A stretch of DNA of 64,000 bases, taken from positions 32,001 to 96,000 of the forward strand of contig JBBTCT010000024.1 of assembly GCA_038060895.1 (NCBI GenBank), given 5' to 3'. The DNA is from Planctomycetota bacterium. GTDB taxonomy: Bacteria; Planctomycetota; MHYJ01; WSZJ01. The notes below the pieces were generated by a model that did no database searches, was not told the DNA's origin, and was given only the letters and a program-made list of their open reading frames with translations. The translations under genes and the position numbers were made by a program. Positions 54,621 to 62,434 of the stretch are shown here, piece after piece; positions within the stretch are counted from its first letter, which is position 1; every line of letters begins with the position of its first letter.

Positions 54621-54820
54621 CAATCGACGGCTGCCGAAGTGCGGCAGTGGTGCTGGAGCGGCGCGGATCTGCCGCAGAAGGCGCCGGGCGTCGCCGTGAC
54701 GACAAATCGGGAGCTAGTGCGGGAAATCTGCGGTCAACGGATTGATTTCGAGAATTCGACATGTCTACGATGCCCCGTTCAAACTTCACCAGCCTTCTCC
54801 CCCAGCTTCGGAGCACCGTC

Positions 54821-55357
54821 ATGACAGCGGATACTTCGCTTGTTCCGGTCGAGCGAGTGGAGCGACGGATCCTTCTTCTGCGTGGAGGGCGGGTCATCCT
54901 CGACGCGGATCTGGCGGATCTCTATGGCGTCCCAACGAAACGCCTCAATGAGCAGGCCAAGCGAAACCACTCGAGATTTCCAGAGGACTTCATGTTCCGA
55001 CTGACTCGGAGGGAAGCGTCCGTCGTGAACCGGTCGCAAATTGCGACCGGTTCCCGGAAACATCGCGATCCCCGCTTCAGGCCGTTCGCCTTCACGGAGC
55101 ACGGGGCCATCATGGCGGCGAACGTCCTGAACAGCCCTCAAGCCGTCGCCGCCAGCGTGCTCGTCGTGCGGGCCTTCGTGCGTCTGCGGCACCTCACCGA
55201 GTCTCACCGCGAAATCGCGGCCAAGCTTCAGGAACTCGAGAAACGCGTCGGCGGGCACGGTGCAGCCATCCAGGAAATCGTCTCTGCAATCCGGCGGCTG
55301 ATGGATCCGCCGCGTGAACGACGGCGGAAGCGGATCGGCTTTCATCTGAAGCGCTGA
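54821..55357 (+). CDS. ORF6N-domain DNA-binding protein
   Basis: VILDADLADLYGV, RFPEDFMFRL, PFAFTEHG, VVRAFV. Confidence 0.9.
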   Translation: MTADTSLVPVERVERRILLLRGGRVILDADLADLYGVPTKRLNEQAKRNHSRFPEDFMFRLTRREASVVNRSQIATGSRKHRDPRFRPFAFTEHGAIMAANVLNSPQAVAASVLVVRAFVRLRHLTESHREIAAKLQELEKRVGGHGAAIQEIVSAIRRLMDPPRERRRKRIGFHLKR

Positions 55358-55506: not shown

Positions 55507-56310
55507 TCACTTCTTCTCCGGTTCCTCCGTAGCTTTCGTCTTCAACGCCGGCTTTGCGTCAGTCCCGAACGCCTTCAGAACCCTCGCGAATTTCCGCTCG
55601 CCGATCACACTGGCTCGTTTGAGGATCCCGCCGTTGGACGTCCATTTGCCCTCCCACGGTAAGTCCTTGTGGAAGATCATCGGGTTTCCGGCCTTGTCCA
55701 GTCGGCGGCGGAAGGGAATCTTGTCGCTCATCCAGAAAGTCTCCACCCGCTTCTTCTGGTCGCTGCCGGGGGTGTGTTCGAGCGTCCACTTCTCGCACTG
55801 GAATTTCTCCTCGCCCACCGTGACCTCTTCCTTCGCCGGAGAAACCGTGCAGGTGGCCCGCTCGGAAGCGCTCAGCCTGCGGTCTTCTTCCGGCGGAATC
55901 TTGGGTCCGGCAACCGGATTTCCTCCCCCCTGCGAGACCCCCATAATATGGCGTTCCGTCACTCGCAGCTTCCGGCCGACTTCGCCTGGCTTACCTGCGT
56001 ATCCCAACAGGACAAGGTTGGATGCCTTGGAAACCCCGAGCAACTGGACTTCTGCTTCGCGCTTTCCCGTGGCCTTGTCAATCCACGCGACGGACCTCTC
56101 AATCCAGACCACGTTTTTTTCCACCTCGGTGCACGCAAGCCGGGAAGTGACGACGTCCATGGCGTCGGGATCGGCGTACTCAACCCAGTCACCCGCTTTG
56201 AGCGCGGCAACGTCGTATTCGTAAAACGCCGTCTCTTCGACTTCGGTTTGTTGAGCTGAAGCAGTGGCACCGGTAAGGAGCACCACCGCGAAGCAGGTGA
56301 CAGACTTCAT
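55507..56310 (-). CDS. Secreted hypothetical protein
   Basis: Signal peptide; AAGGAG RBS; KAGDWVEY and EEVTV…FQCEK beta-rich motifs. Confidence 0.65.
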   Translation of the reverse strand: MKSVTCFAVVLLTGATASAQQTEVEETAFYEYDVAALKAGDWVEYADPDAMDVVTSRLACTEVEKNVVWIERSVAWIDKATGKREAEVQLLGVSKASNLVLLGYAGKPGEVGRKLRVTERHIMGVSQGGGNPVAGPKIPPEEDRRLSASERATCTVSPAKEEVTVGEEKFQCEKWTLEHTPGSDQKKRVETFWMSDKIPFRRRLDKAGNPMIFHKDLPWEGKWTSNGGILKRASVIGERKFARVLKAFGTDAKPALKTKATEEPEKK

Positions 56311-56343: not shown

Positions 56344-57435
56344 CTACCAGCCCTTCATCAGTTCTTCCCGCCCCTTCGCGTCGTACACCTCCGGGAACTT
56401 CGCTCCCTTCTTCCCCGTCACCTTTCCCAGCGCTTCGTGCACCTTCTTCGCCAGGGTCACCGCCATCGGCTTCATCCACTTGTCCTCGGACGGCTCAGGG
56501 TACGCGTCCACCAGCGCCTTCCTCGCCGTTTCGCTCGCCCCCTTGTTCCTCTGCGCGATCTCCACGATCGCGTCCACGCTGATCCCCGTGAGCCCGTTGT
56601 TCGGCGCCGCTTTCGTCCCGGGCGCGAGGGCCGCAATCGAGGCCTCCCCTCCGCACTTGCCCAGCGCCTTCGCCGAGCGGCAGCGCACGACGTTCGGATT
56701 GCGCGACTCGCCGGGGTCCTTGAGAAGCACCTCGAGAGCGGGCGTCGCCTTCGGATCGGGGGCCGCGGAGAGGGCGTCGAGGACCTCGTATCGGAATGCG
56801 TCATTGGCCACGGCCAGCAGCTCCGTCGCGCGGGCGGCGATCATTGCGGGGCCCTGCTTCACGACGATGCGAAGCGCGAGCGTCTTCACGACGATGTCCA
56901 CGTCGCCAAGAAGTTTTTCCGACTTCTCCGCAGTCGGCGCCGCGTGCAGCTCCGCGGCCTTTTTCTCGGCTTCGCGCCACGCCGCAAGCCCCGCGCCTCC
57001 TTTGCCGCCCTTCGCGCTCTCGACGTTCGCCACGAAATCGTCGACCTCGCGCTCGGCCGCGCCCGTCACCTGAAGCGTCGCGGCGTCGAGGAACAGCAGC
57101 CCCGGCCAGCCGGTCACGCCGCAGCGGATCGAGATGCGTTCGGCCATGCGGTCGGCGTCGCTTCCCGTGAAATCGCGGTAGACCCAGACCCACTCGACCT
57201 TGTCGTAGACCGGCTTGAGTGCCGCGTTCGGGAGCAACTGCTCCTCAAGGACGACGCAGTGGGGTCAGTAGGTCTTGGTGAAGTAGAGGAACACGGGCTT
57301 GCCGGACTTTGAAGCGGCCTCCAGCGCGGCGCCGAAGTCCTTGGTCCAGGGAGCGCCGGGGGGAGGGTTGGACGAATCCGCGAGGGCCACGGAGGCGGCA
57401 ACAGCGAACACAAAAACGTATGGAGCGGCAATCAA
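56344..57435 (-). CDS. Putative selenoprotein: secreted thioredoxin-like (UxxC) domain plus HEAT repeats
   Basis: GGAGG RBS, TTG start at 57435, signal peptide, WTKDFGAALEAASKSGKPVFLYFTKTY-TGA-PHC in frame with ORF 56344-57237. Confidence 0.8.
57224..57257 (-). promoter_or_regulatory. Candidate bacterial SECIS hairpin
   Basis: GGAGC-AGTT-GCTCC upper stem, loop 25 nt after the UGA with G at loop position 2; lower stem GCGTCG/CGAACGC. Confidence 0.5.
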
Positions 57436-57471
57436 GGGCGCCTCCGCAAATAAAAACAGCCGCTGGCAAAG

Positions 57472-57539
57472 CGGCCGTTTTCACTTTTCGTTTTTCGTTT
57501 TTACTTTTTCGTTTTTCGTTTCGTTGTTGCCGTTCTTCC
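57472..57539. repeat. One-armed copy of the CGAAAAA heptamer element
   Basis: (TTTTTCG)n…TTTTCGTTTCGTTGTTGCCGTT identical to the right end of 45634-45792. Confidence 0.82.
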
Positions 57540-58898
57540 CTACTTCCCCGTGCTGGTCGTCCCGCCATTGGGATCCACCGGCGGCAGATCAAATAACGCC
57601 GCCTTCGCCGTAAACACCATGTTGTAGTCGTTCCTCTGCACCGCGCTCTCCAGCGCGACCTCGAACGACGGCGCCATCATCCCGTTGAACTTCTCCGTCC
57701 CGTTGATCTTGATGATCACCGGCTTCTTGAAATCCACCAGCTGCTCGTTCAGCCACACCGTGACCTTCGGGTTGAATTTCGTGAACTTCACGTCCACCAC
57801 GTTGTCCTTGATCTCTCCTTCAATCCGGCACCGCTCGCCGGCCGTCCCGGGAATCTCCTCGATGCTCAGCCAGTAGCTGTAAGGCCGGTACTTGCGCGTC
57901 GGCATCCAGATCAGCTGCCTCGGGTACGCATTCCTCGTCTTCGCCAGCATCCATTCGACGATCGGACCCAGGCTGTCCGGCGGATAGCCGTGCCCGATCC
58001 CCTGGTACTCGTGGTACTCGTACGTGTACCCCCACTCCTTGAACTTCGCGTCCGCGTACCGGCTCCCGTGCACCGGGACCTGCGGGTCGTCGGGGCAGTT
58101 ATAGAAGCGCACCCAGGTGTTCTTGAAGTTCTCGAGGCAGCCTGGCTCGTGGTACAGCACGCGCCCGTTTTCGTACCGCACGATCGGCGCCGAAGCGCAC
58201 GGCCCGACCGCCGCGAACAGGTCCGGGTGGTGTCCGCCCATCCCCCACGAGCCATACCCGCCCATCGAGTGCCCCGCGACGTAAATGCGGTTCGTGTCGA
58301 TAGGGTACGTGGCCTTCATCTCGTCGATGAGCATGTGCAGCCATTCCTGCTCGTTGTCCTTGTTCCATTCGCCTTCCGTCAGCGGCTCCAGCACCCACGG
58401 CGCGACCTGGATGCACTTCGAATTCGCCCCCGCCCACTGCCCCGCCGCGCCTCCCGCGTCCGCCGAGTTCTTGCCGCCTCCGTGCAGCGCGATGAACAGC
58501 GGCACCGGCCGGCCCTGCTTGGCTTTCCCTTCGCCGGCGACCAGGTAGTGGCCCTTGTGGTCCTTCTTCCACTGGTCGTCCGTGAAGAGCCGTTCGGGGA
58601 GCACCGTGTAGTTGTTGCTCTTCCCCTCGGACTTCTTCCCGTTCTGCATGATGACGTTGAACACGGTCGGGAGCTGTTTGGCGATCTGGTCGCCGGAAAT
58701 CTCCAGCGCCTTGATTTCGGTCATGATCGCCGCCCGGTCCTTCGCCTCGGCCTTCACATACTTCTGCAGCAGCTCGGCGAAGGCCTTCTTTTCCTTGGGG
58801 CCCCACGGCTTCTTGGCGGGCGGCGGATCGCCGGCAAGGACGGTGGCAAACAGCGCCGCGAAGGCACAGAGCGGGAAGACGAATCGAAGGGCTTTCAC
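57540..58898 (-). CDS. Secreted alpha/beta hydrolase (esterase/peptidase)
   Basis: GTG start with signal peptide; LHGGG, IDTNRIYVAGHSMGG, DPQVP, GIGH triad. Confidence 0.85.
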   Translation of the reverse strand: MKALRFVFPLCAFAALFATVLAGDPPPAKKPWGPKEKKAFAELLQKYVKAEAKDRAAIMTEIKALEISGDQIAKQLPTVFNVIMQNGKKSEGKSNNYTVLPERLFTDDQWKKDHKGHYLVAGEGKAKQGRPVPLFIALHGGGKNSADAGGAAGQWAGANSKCIQVAPWVLEPLTEGEWNKDNEQEWLHMLIDEMKATYPIDTNRIYVAGHSMGGYGSWGMGGHHPDLFAAVGPCASAPIVRYENGRVLYHEPGCLENFKNTWVRFYNCPDDPQVPVHGSRYADAKFKEWGYTYEYHEYQGIGHGYPPDSLGPIVEWMLAKTRNAYPRQLIWMPTRKYRPYSYWLSIEEIPGTAGERCRIEGEIKDNVVDVKFTKFNPKVTVWLNEQLVDFKKPVIIKINGTEKFNGMMAPSFEVALESAVQRNDYNMVFTAKAALFDLPPVDPNGGTTSTGK

Positions 58899-58983: not shown

Positions 58984-61900
58984 TCAGTGCAAATACGGCC
59001 CGAAAGCCACTTTCCTTCCCGCCGCCCCTTCGCTCGCCGCCAGCCGATCTCCCTCCAGCGCAGCCTTCTTTGCGCCTGCGCCGTCTCCCGAGGCCGCCTT
59101 GACTTCCGCTTCGGCAAGGAGGAACTCGAGCGTGAGGCGAAGCGCCATCTGGGCCGGCTTCGCGGCCCGGGCCTGTTCGAGCAGCGCAGGAGCGTCGGAG
59201 GCCCGCGCTTTCGCTGCAACGCGCGCTCGGACGGTGAGCGCGCGGAACCGGGCTGAGGCGGACTTCGAAGCGGCGAGGGCGCGTGCGCCCTCCGTGTCGA
59301 GGCGGATGGAGGCGAGCGCCGCGGCGATGTCGTCGTCCGCGGCGGCGAGCGGTGCGAGCAGGGCGATCGCTTCGTCGAGTCGCCCCTCGAACGCCAGCGT
59401 TTCACCCAGCAGCTGCCGGCGGAGCCCGCCGGTGCCGGCCATCTTGATCTCGATCTGTATGGCGATCGATTCCTCCGCGGCCGCGCGCGCCAGCGCCGCT
59501 TCGCCGCGATCCAGCCGCGCCTCCGCGAGCCTCTCGAGAATGACCGAGACGCCGAGGCGGTCGCCGGTCGCGCGGCGGAGCTCGAGGGCGCGCTCGAGCA
59601 CGTCGCAGGCCTGCCGCGCCTGGCCGAGCTTGCAGCGGAACATCCCTTCGTTGCTGAGGAGCATGGCTTCGCCCCACTTGTCGGCGATGTCGCGGCGGAT
59701 CGCGAGCGCTTCTTCCGTCGTCGCGAACGCCTTGTCGGGGTGGCCGTCCTGGAACTCGACCGATGCCATGTTCGTGAGCACCATCGCGATGCGCCAGCGG
59801 TCCCCGGCTTCGCGGAAAACTTCGAGCGCCGCTTCGTACTCGACGCGCGCCTCGGGGAGCCTGTTCTGGTGCATGAAAAGAATGCCGAGCCCGTTGCGGA
59901 CGTTTGCAGCGCCGTGGACGTCTTCGGCTTCGGCGTAGAGGGCCTGCGCCCGCCTGTACGCCTCAGCCGCGAAAGTCGTTTCGGATTTCCGGTCGCGCAC
60001 GCGCGCCTCGGTGCTGATCGCGTTGGCCAGGTCGATCTTCGCCGCGCGGCCGCCGCCCGCGTCGGCCTGGGCCTGGGCCCGTTTCTGCAGCTCGGCCGCG
60101 TCCCGGAGGCATTCGTCGAAGCGCGACAGGCGGTAGAACAGGTGGCTGCGGTCCCGAAGGACATGCGTGTGAAGAAACGCGGCCTTCGGGTCGGCGAGGA
60201 TCGCTTCGTCGATCTCGAGCGCGCGCGCGAATTCGCCGCGCCGCTCGTGGATCGCGCCGATCTGGCGGCGGACGCGGAAGCGCAGGACTTCGGTGAGGTT
60301 GGTGGATTCGAGAAGCGACTCCGCTTCCGCGAGAGCCTGTTCGCCGAGACCGAGGATGTTGAGCGCCTTGATGGCGCTGAGCGCGGCCTCGGGCGAGCCG
60401 TCGATGCGCTGCGCCTCGCGCGCGGAGGCGAGGGCCTCCTCGTAGGCGGAGAATTCCAGCGCTTCCTCGGCGGCGCGCGCCCAGTGTTTCGAAGCGGCCT
60501 CGAGCCTCAGGGCCGCTTCGCAGTGGCCCGCAAGGAGGATGAGCACGCGGCGGCCGAGGTGGGGGATGAGGGGCTCGAGGATTTCGGCGGCGCGTCCGTG
60601 GAGGCGCTGGCGTTCTTTCTTGGTGAGGAGCGAGTACGCGGCGTCGCGCAGGGGGCTCTGGCGGAAGTGGAATTCCTCGTCGAGGGGGAGGAAGGACGAG
60701 CCGGCTCGCTCGACGAGCATGCGGCGGCCGGCCTGTTCGAGGGCGGGGCCGACGTCGTGGCCGGCGAGCGTGCCGGTGGCGGCCGACCAGAAGGCGCGGC
60801 CGAAGATGCTTCCGCATTTCAGCGCTTCGCGCGCGTCCGCGGAAACCGCGTCGATGCGCGAGACGAGCAGCCCGCGCAGCCCGTCGGGGAGCCGGTCGGG
60901 GCGCGTTGCAAAGCGTGCCGGGTTTCCCTCCAGGAATCCCTCCTGCCGGAGGAATCGAACGAGCTCCTCCATGTACAGCGGGTTCCCCGCCGACTGGTCG
61001 ACCAGGAACGACGACAGCTCCGGGTCGAGGTCGCGCTGCAGCAACTCGCGAGCGAGCTGCGCTGCTTCCGCCGCCGGCAGTTCCACCAGTTTCACGCGCT
61101 CGAATCCTCCCGGGATCCGCGTGGCGGGCCGCGACGTCGCGAGGATCACCACGCGCTCGTCGCGCAGCTTCGCCGCGAGATGGTCGAGCAGCGCGAACGT
61201 CGCCGGGTCCGCCCAGTGCAGGTCCTCGAGGCACAGCAGCACCGGCGCGCGCCGCGCCAGCCCGCGGATCCATCGCTCCCACGCCTCCAGCGTCTCCGTC
61301 CGCGCGCGGGTCGCGTCGCCGGGAGCCGGCCCCGTCCCCGCCGCCTGCCCCATCGACCGCGTCATCAGGTGCGCGAAATTTGAACGCTCTGCCGCTCCCG
61401 AAACCGTCAGCGCGAGGACTTCCGACACGAAGGCCCTCGTCGAAGCCGCCTCCGCCGCCGCGTCGCCCCCCGGCGACTGCGACGCCGCCCGGCACGCGCT
61501 CCGCACGATCTCCGCGAACGGCCCGAGCGGAAGCGGGGAGCCTTCCTGCGCGTGGCCCAGCCCGATCCACGTCTCCGGGTTCACGCGGCGCGCGTGGTCG
61601 CGCGCCTCCCCGGTCAGTCGCGTCTTGCCGACGCCAGAGTCCCCCTCGAGCAGCAGGAACGCGCTCTTCGCCCCCGTGACCGCGTCCTTGATCCGCTGGA
61701 GTTCCGTCACGCGCCCGATGAGCCGCGCGGGGCCGACGTCGCCGGTCGAAGGGACGATGGTGCCGGTCTCCCGGATCGCCTCGGAGACGCCGACGGAATC
61801 CTGACGCCCGCGCAGGTGCATCTCCCTCTCGGGGCCGAATTCGACGCGGTAGTTCGTGGCGCGGGCGACCGCCCGGGAAGCGAGGACCTCCCCAGGCTGC

Positions 61901-62319
61901 GCTTCCGACTGCAGCCGTTGCGCGACGTTGACGGCGTCGCCCATGGCCGTCGGCCGGTCTCCGCCCACGGTCCCCCAGAGCACCTCGCCCGTGTTGACAC
62001 CGACCCGGATCTTCAGGTCGAGCGATCGCTGCGCGTTGAAAAGCTCCAGCTCGCGCTTCATGGAGAGAGCCGCCCGCACCGCCCGAAGCGGATCATCCTC
62101 GTGCGCGGTCGGCGCGCCGAAAACTCCCATCACGGTGTCGCCGACGAACTTGTCCACCGTCCCGCCGCGAGCCTCGATCACGCGCCGGAATCGCGTGAAC
62201 ACGGCGTCCACGACCTCGGCCGCGGATTCGGCGGCGTCCTCAGGGTCCGGCGAGGAGACGTCGCCGATGCCGACGATGCCTGTGAAAAGGACGGTGACGA
62301 CGCGGCGTTCTTCGGCCAT
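58984..62319 (-). CDS. Class III nucleotide cyclase-like domain, STAND-type NTPase and TPR repeats
   Basis: KFVGD, FGAP.AHEDD, GDAVNVAQRL; Walker A GDSGVGKT, Walker B LEDLHWAD; C-terminal TPRs. Confidence 0.9.
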   Translation of the reverse strand: MAEERRVVTVLFTGIVGIGDVSSPDPEDAAESAAEVVDAVFTRFRRVIEARGGTVDKFVGDTVMGVFGAPTAHEDDPLRAVRAALSMKRELELFNAQRSLDLKIRVGVNTGEVLWGTVGGDRPTAMGDAVNVAQRLQSEAQPGEVLASRAVARATNYRVEFGPEREMHLRGRQDSVGVSEAIRETGTIVPSTGDVGPARLIGRVTELQRIKDAVTGAKSAFLLLEGDSGVGKTRLTGEARDHARRVNPETWIGLGHAQEGSPLPLGPFAEIVRSACRAASQSPGGDAAAEAASTRAFVSEVLALTVSGAAERSNFAHLMTRSMGQAAGTGPAPGDATRARTETLEAWERWIRGLARRAPVLLCLEDLHWADPATFALLDHLAAKLRDERVVILATSRPATRIPGGFERVKLVELPAAEAAQLARELLQRDLDPELSSFLVDQSAGNPLYMEELVRFLRQEGFLEGNPARFATRPDRLPDGLRGLLVSRIDAVSADAREALKCGSIFGRAFWSAATGTLAGHDVGPALEQAGRRMLVERAGSSFLPLDEEFHFRQSPLRDAAYSLLTKKERQRLHGRAAEILEPLIPHLGRRVLILLAGHCEAALRLEAASKHWARAAEEALEFSAYEEALASAREAQRIDGSPEAALSAIKALNILGLGEQALAEAESLLESTNLTEVLRFRVRRQIGAIHERRGEFARALEIDEAILADPKAAFLHTHVLRDRSHLFYRLSRFDECLRDAAELQKRAQAQADAGGGRAAKIDLANAISTEARVRDRKSETTFAAEAYRRAQALYAEAEDVHGAANVRNGLGILFMHQNRLPEARVEYEAALEVFREAGDRWRIAMVLTNMASVEFQDGHPDKAFATTEEALAIRRDIADKWGEAMLLSNEGMFRCKLGQARQACDVLERALELRRATGDRLGVSVILERLAEARLDRGEAALARAAAEESIAIQIEIKMAGTGGLRRQLLGETLAFEGRLDEAIALLAPLAAADDDIAAALASIRLDTEGARALAASKSASARFRALTVRARVAAKARASDAPALLEQARAAKPAQMALRLTLEFLLAEAEVKAASGDGAGAKKAALEGDRLAASEGAAGRKVAFGPYLH

Positions 62320-62434
62320 AGAGGCGGGAGAGCATAGACGCACGATCGGCAAAGGACAAAGGGGAAGCGGAGATCGGCGGCGACTTTCGGCAAATCTCAA
62401 ATCCGGTGTCGGCCCGTCTTTTTCAAAATCCCTT

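Follow-up and report, generated by a model that had tools for sequence, protein, structure and literature searches.

An in-frame UGA hides a predicted selenocysteine-containing thioredoxin-HEAT protein from standard gene calling in Planctomycetota

We analyzed a 64,000-nt stretch of DNA (hereafter the window) from a Planctomycetota bacterium (assembly GCA_038060895.1, contig JBBTCT010000024.1, positions 32,001 to 96,000 of the forward strand), in which a minus-strand gene at 56344..57435 is predicted to encode a selenocysteine (Sec) protein. The window is part of contig C24 of a 5.4-Mb assembly (G000; 47 contigs, 86.5% complete). The frame of the gene is open from a TTG start (57435-57433) to a TAG stop (56346-56344), that is, 363 codons plus the stop, and its sole in-frame TGA (57267-57265) is codon 57; direct reading of the sequence places a GGAGG ribosome-binding site (57441..57445, minus strand) 5 nt ahead of this start. 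With the TGA taken as Sec (U), the conceptual product has 363 residues and reads M/L-IAAPYVFVFAVAASVALA-DSS...GKPVFLYFTKTY-U-PHC: the predicted Sec codon (57265..57267, minus strand) occupies the first position of a U-P-H-C redox motif, and the TGC of codon 60 (57256..57258, minus strand) specifies the resolving Cys, an invariant column in a full-length alignment with five orthologs and one Cys homolog (alignment A1) that covers the gene end to end. Calling of open reading frames (ORFs) under translation table 11 splits this gene into a 56-aa piece and a 297-aa piece. The latter (56344..57237, minus strand), an artefact of reading UGA as a stop, starts at TTG 57237, inside the loop of the hairpin described below, and is the only product that a large protein database holds for the gene's DNA (entry P0002). 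A first-pass annotation, made from the letters of the window, had proposed the extension through a single TGA upstream of the called ORF, the GGAGG site, the 363-aa length and the truncation by standard gene callers, and all four were found as proposed.

The same annotation had called the product a thioredoxin fused to HEAT repeats, and both parts scored above their Pfam cut-offs. Thioredoxin_7 (PF13899) matched residues 30-117 (E 3.3e-10; 40.4 bits against a cut-off of 27), a domain that spans the TGA, and PF13098 matched the same residues more weakly (27.9 bits; cut-off 27). HEAT_2 (PF13646) matched residues 207-278 (34.5 bits; cut-off 27.7), and HEAT_PBS was also matched in the C-terminal half; Pfam returned zero hits on the protein for PDZ, and zero for DSBA (PF01323) at E <= 0.1. 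An AlphaFold2 model on a 7-sequence alignment (predicted local distance difference test score, pLDDT, 90.4; predicted TM-score 0.86) agreed with a thioredoxin-fold domain of the Thioredoxin_7 type at residues ~30-140 (57016..57348, minus strand), followed by an all-helical HEAT/alpha-solenoid domain at residues ~148-363 (56347..56994, minus strand; helices 148-362 in the model). The model puts Sec57 after strand 48-54 and ahead of helix 58-67, where thioredoxins canonically have their active site, and the invariant Pro111 (57103-57105) comes before strand 112-117, at the place of the cis-Pro loop; R87-D88-F89, E99-R100 and an S-R-N-P-N motif of the solenoid (244-248) are likewise invariant in alignment A1. 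The solved folds nearest to the N-terminal domain in Foldseek were DsbH (2ju5, TM 0.69), DsbD-gamma (2fwf, 0.65) and ERp18 (1sen, 0.64), and comparison by hidden Markov model (HMM) with the PDB matched the N-terminal domain to 2ju5 (E 7.6e-8) and the C-terminal part to armadillo/alphaRep/HEAT solenoids (E 1.6e-21). Ahead of both domains, the hydrophobic codons 1-19 (57379..57435, minus strand; MIAAPYVFVFAVAASVALA) end in A-L-A and would form a signal peptide, cleaved at an A-x-A site ahead of DSS, which would imply export and a periplasmic location; residues 1-18 are disordered in the model (pLDDT < 50), as expected for a signal peptide, and the orthologs have hydrophobic N-termini containing K/R.

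A search for homologs with Cys or TGA at codon 57, which the first-pass annotation had named as a check on its placement of U at the first Cys of a CxxC motif, returned both forms at exactly that column. Among 40 relatives, each full-length ortholog (41-79% identity) has one TGA, always within TKTY-U-P[HSA]C. In an even sample of 401 Planctomycetota genomes, surveyed at a match threshold of E <= 1e-25, an ortholog was found in 27 genomes (the window's genome included), which represent 22 of the 288 genera. Each of the 27 has a single TGA, always at this column and in the context TK[TK][YH]-U-P[HSA]C; the dipeptide between U and C is P-H in 25 of them, and alignment A1 shows the coding sequence to be conserved on either side of the TGA. 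The Cys form P0005 (386 aa; 44% identical over 97% coverage) reads FIYFTKTY-C-PHC against FLYFTKTY-U-PHC here, and four Planctomycetota genes (L065, L067, L072 and L074) have a TGT or TGC codon at the Sec column.

An exhaustive profile search over 1.84 billion representative proteins yielded 102 proteins at E <= 1e-30, and 99 of the top rows (P0002 to P0111) were tabulated, to the exclusion of three very long multi-HEAT proteins (P0097, P0107 and P0108) and of all rows past P0111. Of the 99, 56 first align to the profile at positions 66-80, just past the Sec column, and do so within 3 residues of their own N-terminus; the remainder comprise 18 full-length proteins and 25 other fragments. Such restarts are the signature of gene callers resuming after a stop, and the genes of these 56 truncated representatives probably contain a TGA as well. 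The full-length representatives have CxxC at the Sec column in 13 cases and no redox motif in five. In a longer homolog, locus L018 (G008:C60; ~35% identity), an open frame of ~500 aa keeps the thioredoxin-HEAT layout with TQNSMSEQ replacing TKTY-U-PHC; it and the five motif-less representatives are redox-dead relatives whose sole role may be that of binding proteins. Three Cys-form members (P0014, P0028 and P0041; 535-580 aa) have an extra ~170-220 residues N-terminal to the thioredoxin-HEAT unit. Within the collections searched, the thioredoxin-HEAT family was seen only in Planctomycetota.

These comparisons bear on the simplest alternative, namely a broken or mis-sequenced gene, in which the TGA would be a nonsense mutation or an error and from which the cell would make only the 297-aa HEAT protein or nothing. 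Such a gene would agree with the presence of only the 297-aa product in databases and with the common use of TGA as a stop in this genome. It is hard to reconcile with a TGA kept at one column in 27 of 27 orthologs from 22 genera with both flanks conserved, with a covarying hairpin that tracks the TGA and with a full Sec machinery in the genome (both described below); moreover, judging from the model, neither half alone would suffice for a thioredoxin fold. We regard a broken gene as vanishingly improbable.

Shortly past the TGA lies a hairpin resembling a bacterial selenocysteine insertion sequence (bSECIS) element (57228..57248, minus strand), recognized by its pairing, its covariation and its occurrence in TGA forms only. 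Its upper stem and loop, GGAGC-AGUU-GCUCC (57244-57231), pair 57244-57240 with 57235-57231 around an AGUU loop (57239-57236), and its lower stem has three pairs (57248-57246 with 57230-57228) below a bulged A at 57245. The hairpin begins 16-20 nt past the TGA, and the distance from the UGA to the AGUU loop is exactly 25 nt; an AGUU-loop hairpin at this spacing had been proposed in the first-pass annotation, and both loop and spacing proved exact. A bSECIS is expected to carry a G (GU) in its apical loop, and the distance window of bSECISearch reportedly spans ~16-37 nt to the loop; the hairpin here presents AGUU at 25 nt.

Since the fold of a single sequence proves nothing, support for the hairpin was drawn from comparison among genes. 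The 27 orthologs align gap-free for 66 nt counted from the TGA, and the aligned structure consists of upper-stem columns 24-28/33-37, an AG(U/G)U loop, the bulged A and lower pairs at columns 20-22/38-40. Pairing was found in 88.4% of 216 cells versus 82.0 +/- 1.2% with the 3' letters shuffled, and the covariation score was 0.223 versus 0.109 (in each case reached by 0 of 500 shuffles); since the sequences are related, these figures are not probabilities and the control overstates significance. When the partner strand was slid by 1-3 columns, pairing was only 36-67%. Pair 25-36 is compensatory (GC in 15 orthologs, AU in seven, CG in two, GU in one, unpaired in two), and pair 21-39, formed by the third positions of two codons and synonymous, varies among GC (11), CG (5) and UG (1); RNAalifold recovered the upper stem unaided. 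A natural control came from 19 named Planctomycetota loci, partly overlapping the 27 orthologs: all 15 TGA-form genes among them have the hairpin, and none of the 4 Cys-form genes does. In the latter (the four genes with a Cys codon listed above) only one of the five upper pairs is possible in register, and the peptide E[EK]QLLP is swapped for ESE[ML]LS or DAMLSR. In the other TGA candidates of the window's genome (SelD and three thioredoxin-like paralogs), a hairpin also begins ~14-21 nt after the TGA.

The genome encodes the machinery for Sec insertion. The first-pass annotation had also pointed to selA, selB, selC and selD as genes to look for, and all four products were found: SelA (448.7 bits), SelB (310.7 bits, or 344.3 with the C-terminal part; cut-off 242), SelD (364 bits) and a tRNA-Sec gene at C4:13533-13624 (Rfam 71.7 bits; gathering score 47), which shares its contig with selA. 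SelD has its own single in-frame TGA in a U-x-x-K context and is a second selenoprotein of the genome (G000:C2:48628-49548, minus strand; locus L002), reading SSCAG-U-ASKLG with a hairpin ~14 nt downstream. A second tRNA-Sec called by ARAGORN (G000:C1:472898-472990) was rejected: it is identical to the C4 copy at 34 of 93 positions, has acceptor-stem mismatches and 75% G+C, and goes unreported by the Rfam tRNA-Sec model (RF01852), which makes it a probable false positive. ARAGORN further listed a tRNA with a four-base anticodon (tatg), of undetermined identity, at G000:C22:196109-196184 (complement).

TGA terminates 386 of the 888 long ORFs with high third-position G+C in this genome; thus it is an ordinary stop, and any recoding is site-specific. 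This count matters for a further alternative, that the TGA is read through without Sec, either by genome-wide reassignment or by hairpin-stimulated near-cognate insertion of Trp or Cys. Downstream hairpins are in general able to stimulate read-through. Reassignment, however, is contradicted by the 386 ORFs ending at TGA and by two orthologs of the thioredoxin-HEAT gene that themselves terminate at a TGA stop codon; the column aligns with the Cys of a CxxC motif, and the genome keeps a dedicated Sec machinery, including a Sec-containing SelD. Read-through of this kind is extremely unlikely in our view.

The gene structure, the pairing of Sec and Cys forms, the covarying RNA hairpin, the Sec machinery and the fold are all demonstrated by the present analysis, and we are nearly certain that UGA codon 57 encodes Sec within one 363-residue protein. 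Besides the overstated shuffle control, several observations weigh against this reading or against its extension to export and function: i) selenium incorporation at codon 57 is a prediction from sequence; ii) the 81-nt hairpin region folded alone was not stable beyond its shuffles (z = -1.06); iii) an Rfam scan of 57100-57350 at E <= 10 gave zero matches; iv) where the other orthologs have the hairpin, L052, one of the 27, differs in sequence, and pair 21-39 is broken in 10 of the 27; v) the signal peptide of the window copy contains no basic residue in its n-region; vi) conserved neighbours hinting at a substrate were not found among the loci compared, nor was a conserved operon; vii) P-H is the active-site dipeptide of the oxidase DsbA, which speaks against a purely reductive role. 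With these points taken into account, the full statement, that is, a Sec protein that is exported and carries out thiol-disulfide chemistry, still appears highly probable.

In the mechanism that we propose, UGA codon 57 would be recoded as Sec during translation, with SelB and Sec-tRNA(Sec) binding the AGUU-loop hairpin and delivering Sec to the ribosome, as in the standard bacterial mechanism, and the N-terminal signal peptide would direct the product to export. We infer the catalytic roles, the substrate and the redox direction as follows. The active site U57-P-H-C60, at the start of helix 1, would face the loop of the invariant Pro111, and thiol-disulfide (selenenylsulfide) exchange on exported clients is the most likely chemistry: Sec57 would be the attacking nucleophile on client disulfides or thiols, and Cys60 would resolve the resulting selenenylsulfide, while the HEAT solenoid would serve as a module that holds the client or a redox partner. 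The protein may act as a reductase or isomerase that is recycled by a DsbD/CcdA-type membrane electron transporter, for which the genome has a DsbD_TM gene at G000:C14:123686-124321 (113.4 bits). DsbH and DsbD gamma, both with a thioredoxin fold, belong to the reductive pathway of the periplasm, and we lean to a reductase or isomerase because the fold resembles theirs and a reductant importer is present.

Alternatively, the same selenoprotein could be an oxidase, that is, a DsbA-like disulfide donor whose HEAT domain binds nascent exported clients. The P-H dipeptide in 25 of 27 orthologs would suit this role, and DsbB and VKOR, the two membrane-partner families searched for, were not detected in the 86.5%-complete assembly, leaving room for an alternative oxidant; since the assembly is incomplete, their absence is not established. 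The fold, on the other hand, is that of DsbH, DsbD-gamma and ERp18 and not of DsbA, and a DSBA hit at E <= 0.1 was lacking; a selenenylsulfide serves less readily as an oxidant than a disulfide does; the reductant importer was found, and no re-oxidising partner was identified. We therefore treat an oxidase as a possible but rather unlikely variant. The Sec/Cys pair might instead be a ligand for a metal or metalloid (e.g. Hg, Cu, As or Se) with the HEAT domain as scaffold. Several predicted UxxC/UxxU bacterial selenoproteins are metal-related in a 2026 inventory (PMC13188914), and no operon context speaks against such a role here. Against a ligand site stand the canonical catalytic geometry, in which the motif opens helix 1 and the cis-Pro position is taken by an invariant Pro, the nearest folds, which are thiol-disulfide oxidoreductases, and the lack of metal-resistance neighbours; we consider it very unlikely. 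A reductase or isomerase acting on exported clients remains the reading that we prefer.

The genomic surroundings give little guidance. The upstream neighbour, encoded on the same strand, is an exported esterase/S9-like protein (57543-58898), and the downstream one a 267-aa exported protein without a Pfam family (55507-56310). Tblastn of these two neighbours against six ortholog loci recovered only the esterase, in a same-genus relative, and clustering of the 228 ORFs of 38 loci found no neighbour common to more than four loci; besides the gene, present at 32 loci, only its antisense shadow ORF, present at 28, was widely shared. Thus the context says nothing on substrate, and we rejected functional inference from it. 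Just upstream of the GGAGG, the preceding esterase-like gene is closed off by a hairpin rich in G+C (57475-57459) and a T-run after it. Between the esterase-like stop and this terminator-like hairpin (57459-57475) there is an A/T-rich 7-nt tandem repeat (57476-57521; TTTTCGT on the plus strand, 5.3 copies, 86% matches), odd in a genome of 66% G+C. Further upstream, 58984-62400 (minus strand) encodes a 1138-aa signalling protein with an adenylate/guanylate cyclase domain, an AAA_16 ATPase and TPR repeats. Convergent with the selenoprotein-gene cluster is a 198-aa ORF (54761-55357, plus strand) that scores 96.1 bits for ORF6N, a domain often seen in antirepressor-like proteins of phages and mobile elements.

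Elsewhere in the genome, three thioredoxin-like ORFs (the L032-L034 set) each combine a single in-frame TGA, placed as the U of a U-x-x-C motif, with a downstream hairpin: C22:368986-369321 (plus strand; FTRSFAP-U-PFC), C1:204066-204461 (minus strand; FTRSYAP-U-GPC) and C1:199011-199268 (plus strand; HFTADW-U-NAC). Related genomes contain dozens of comparable hits with a TGA, which suggests that the lineage has an expanded set of exported thioredoxin-fold selenoproteins.

With this gene, the bacterial selenoproteome gains a well-supported family, a Thioredoxin_7 domain with a predicted U-P-H-C site joined to a HEAT solenoid, that is spread across Planctomycetota. Public annotation systematically splits the family, leaving a 297-aa tail here and 56 of the 99 top representatives starting right past the Sec column, and such systematic truncation makes the functional and domain statistics of these genomes consistently wrong. 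The 15 TGA-form and four Cys-form genes amount to a clean experiment of nature on the form that a SECIS takes in planctomycetes, and the contrast between them could train selenoprotein predictors for a poorly covered phylum. More speculatively, Trx7-HEAT might be a periplasmic redox enzyme that is specific to Planctomycetota, is mostly selenium-dependent and brings its own client-binding solenoid, dedicated to one class of exported substrate, an idea that we offer tentatively and think more doubtful than sound. Were it true, the enzyme could for example keep the cysteines of the phylum's many exported cytochrome-type or cysteine-rich proteins reduced until cofactors are attached, which would echo the thioether chemistry of PBS-lyase HEAT proteins, and the preference for Sec over Cys (56 truncated versus 13 CxxC representatives) would answer to a genuine demand of catalysis in the envelope.

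A 2016 paper (PMC4807772) documented planctomycete Sec machinery along with some selenoproteins. Full-text literature on selenoproteins, HEAT repeats and Planctomycetota did not yield a description of a thioredoxin-HEAT selenoprotein, nor did the text examined of PMC13188914, PMC13326102, PMC12013277 and PMC4807772, whose supplementary tables might list one. HEAT, PF13899 and PF13646 are absent from the main text of the 2026 review (PMC13188914), and the main texts on BSepDB and deep-Sep mention neither HEAT-repeat nor Planctomycetota selenoproteins, which their supplements might do. Curated NCBIfam selenoprotein families gave sub-threshold matches only, e.g. 24.6 bits for TsoB against a cut-off of 805, and the VPGUxxT families matched, again below threshold, only the Cys homolog; membership in these families was rejected.

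Among individual systems, the Trx7/PDZ (seleno)protein NF041199 likewise has Sec in a Thioredoxin_7-type domain fused to a protein-binding module, and shows weak local similarity to residues 29-71. Its motif is CxxU (PMC13188914) and its partner domain PDZ, whereas UxxC and HEAT are found here, and membership was rejected on these grounds, on the lack of a PDZ hit and on a score of 22.7 bits, the cut-off being 300. The nearest folds, DsbH of Chlamydia (2ju5) and DsbD gamma (2fwf and 1uc7), superpose with a root-mean-square deviation of 2.6-3.6 A over ~124 columns (2.6 A for 2ju5); they have Cys and not Sec, other x-x dipeptides and no HEAT domain, and the gene described here has no DsbD membrane domain. 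Membership was rejected for DsbH (NF043050; 22 bits against 190) and DsbD (NF001419; 14.6 against 330), as it was for DsbA (PF01323), with which the P-H dipeptide is the sole resemblance. The C-terminal domain, like PBS-lyase-type HEAT repeats and alphaRep scaffolds, matches HEAT_2, HEAT_PBS and alphaRep; those proteins are stand-alone binding scaffolds or lyase subunits, none known to be fused to a Sec-thioredoxin, and the invariant S-R-N-P-N motif of the solenoid here is not assignable to them.

There is also close kinship with the UxxC thioredoxin-fold selenoproteins, the commonest kind in bacteria according to the 2026 review, which lists 119 families (PMC13188914). The PF13098 thiol:disulfide interchange selenoprotein is of the UxxC type, and the present protein, also UxxC, scores 27.9 bits for PF13098, close to the cut-off of 27; the best family here is PF13899, unlisted in that inventory, and a C-terminal HEAT solenoid of ~215 residues is added. 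Because NCBIfam matches lie far below threshold and the literature searched gave no description, the thioredoxin-HEAT family appears to be uncatalogued in the sources checked, yet of a familiar kind: as in other UxxC thioredoxin-fold selenoproteins, the predicted Sec comes first in UxxC, within a fold that is probably exported, with Cys homologs at the same column and a bSECIS-like hairpin just downstream.

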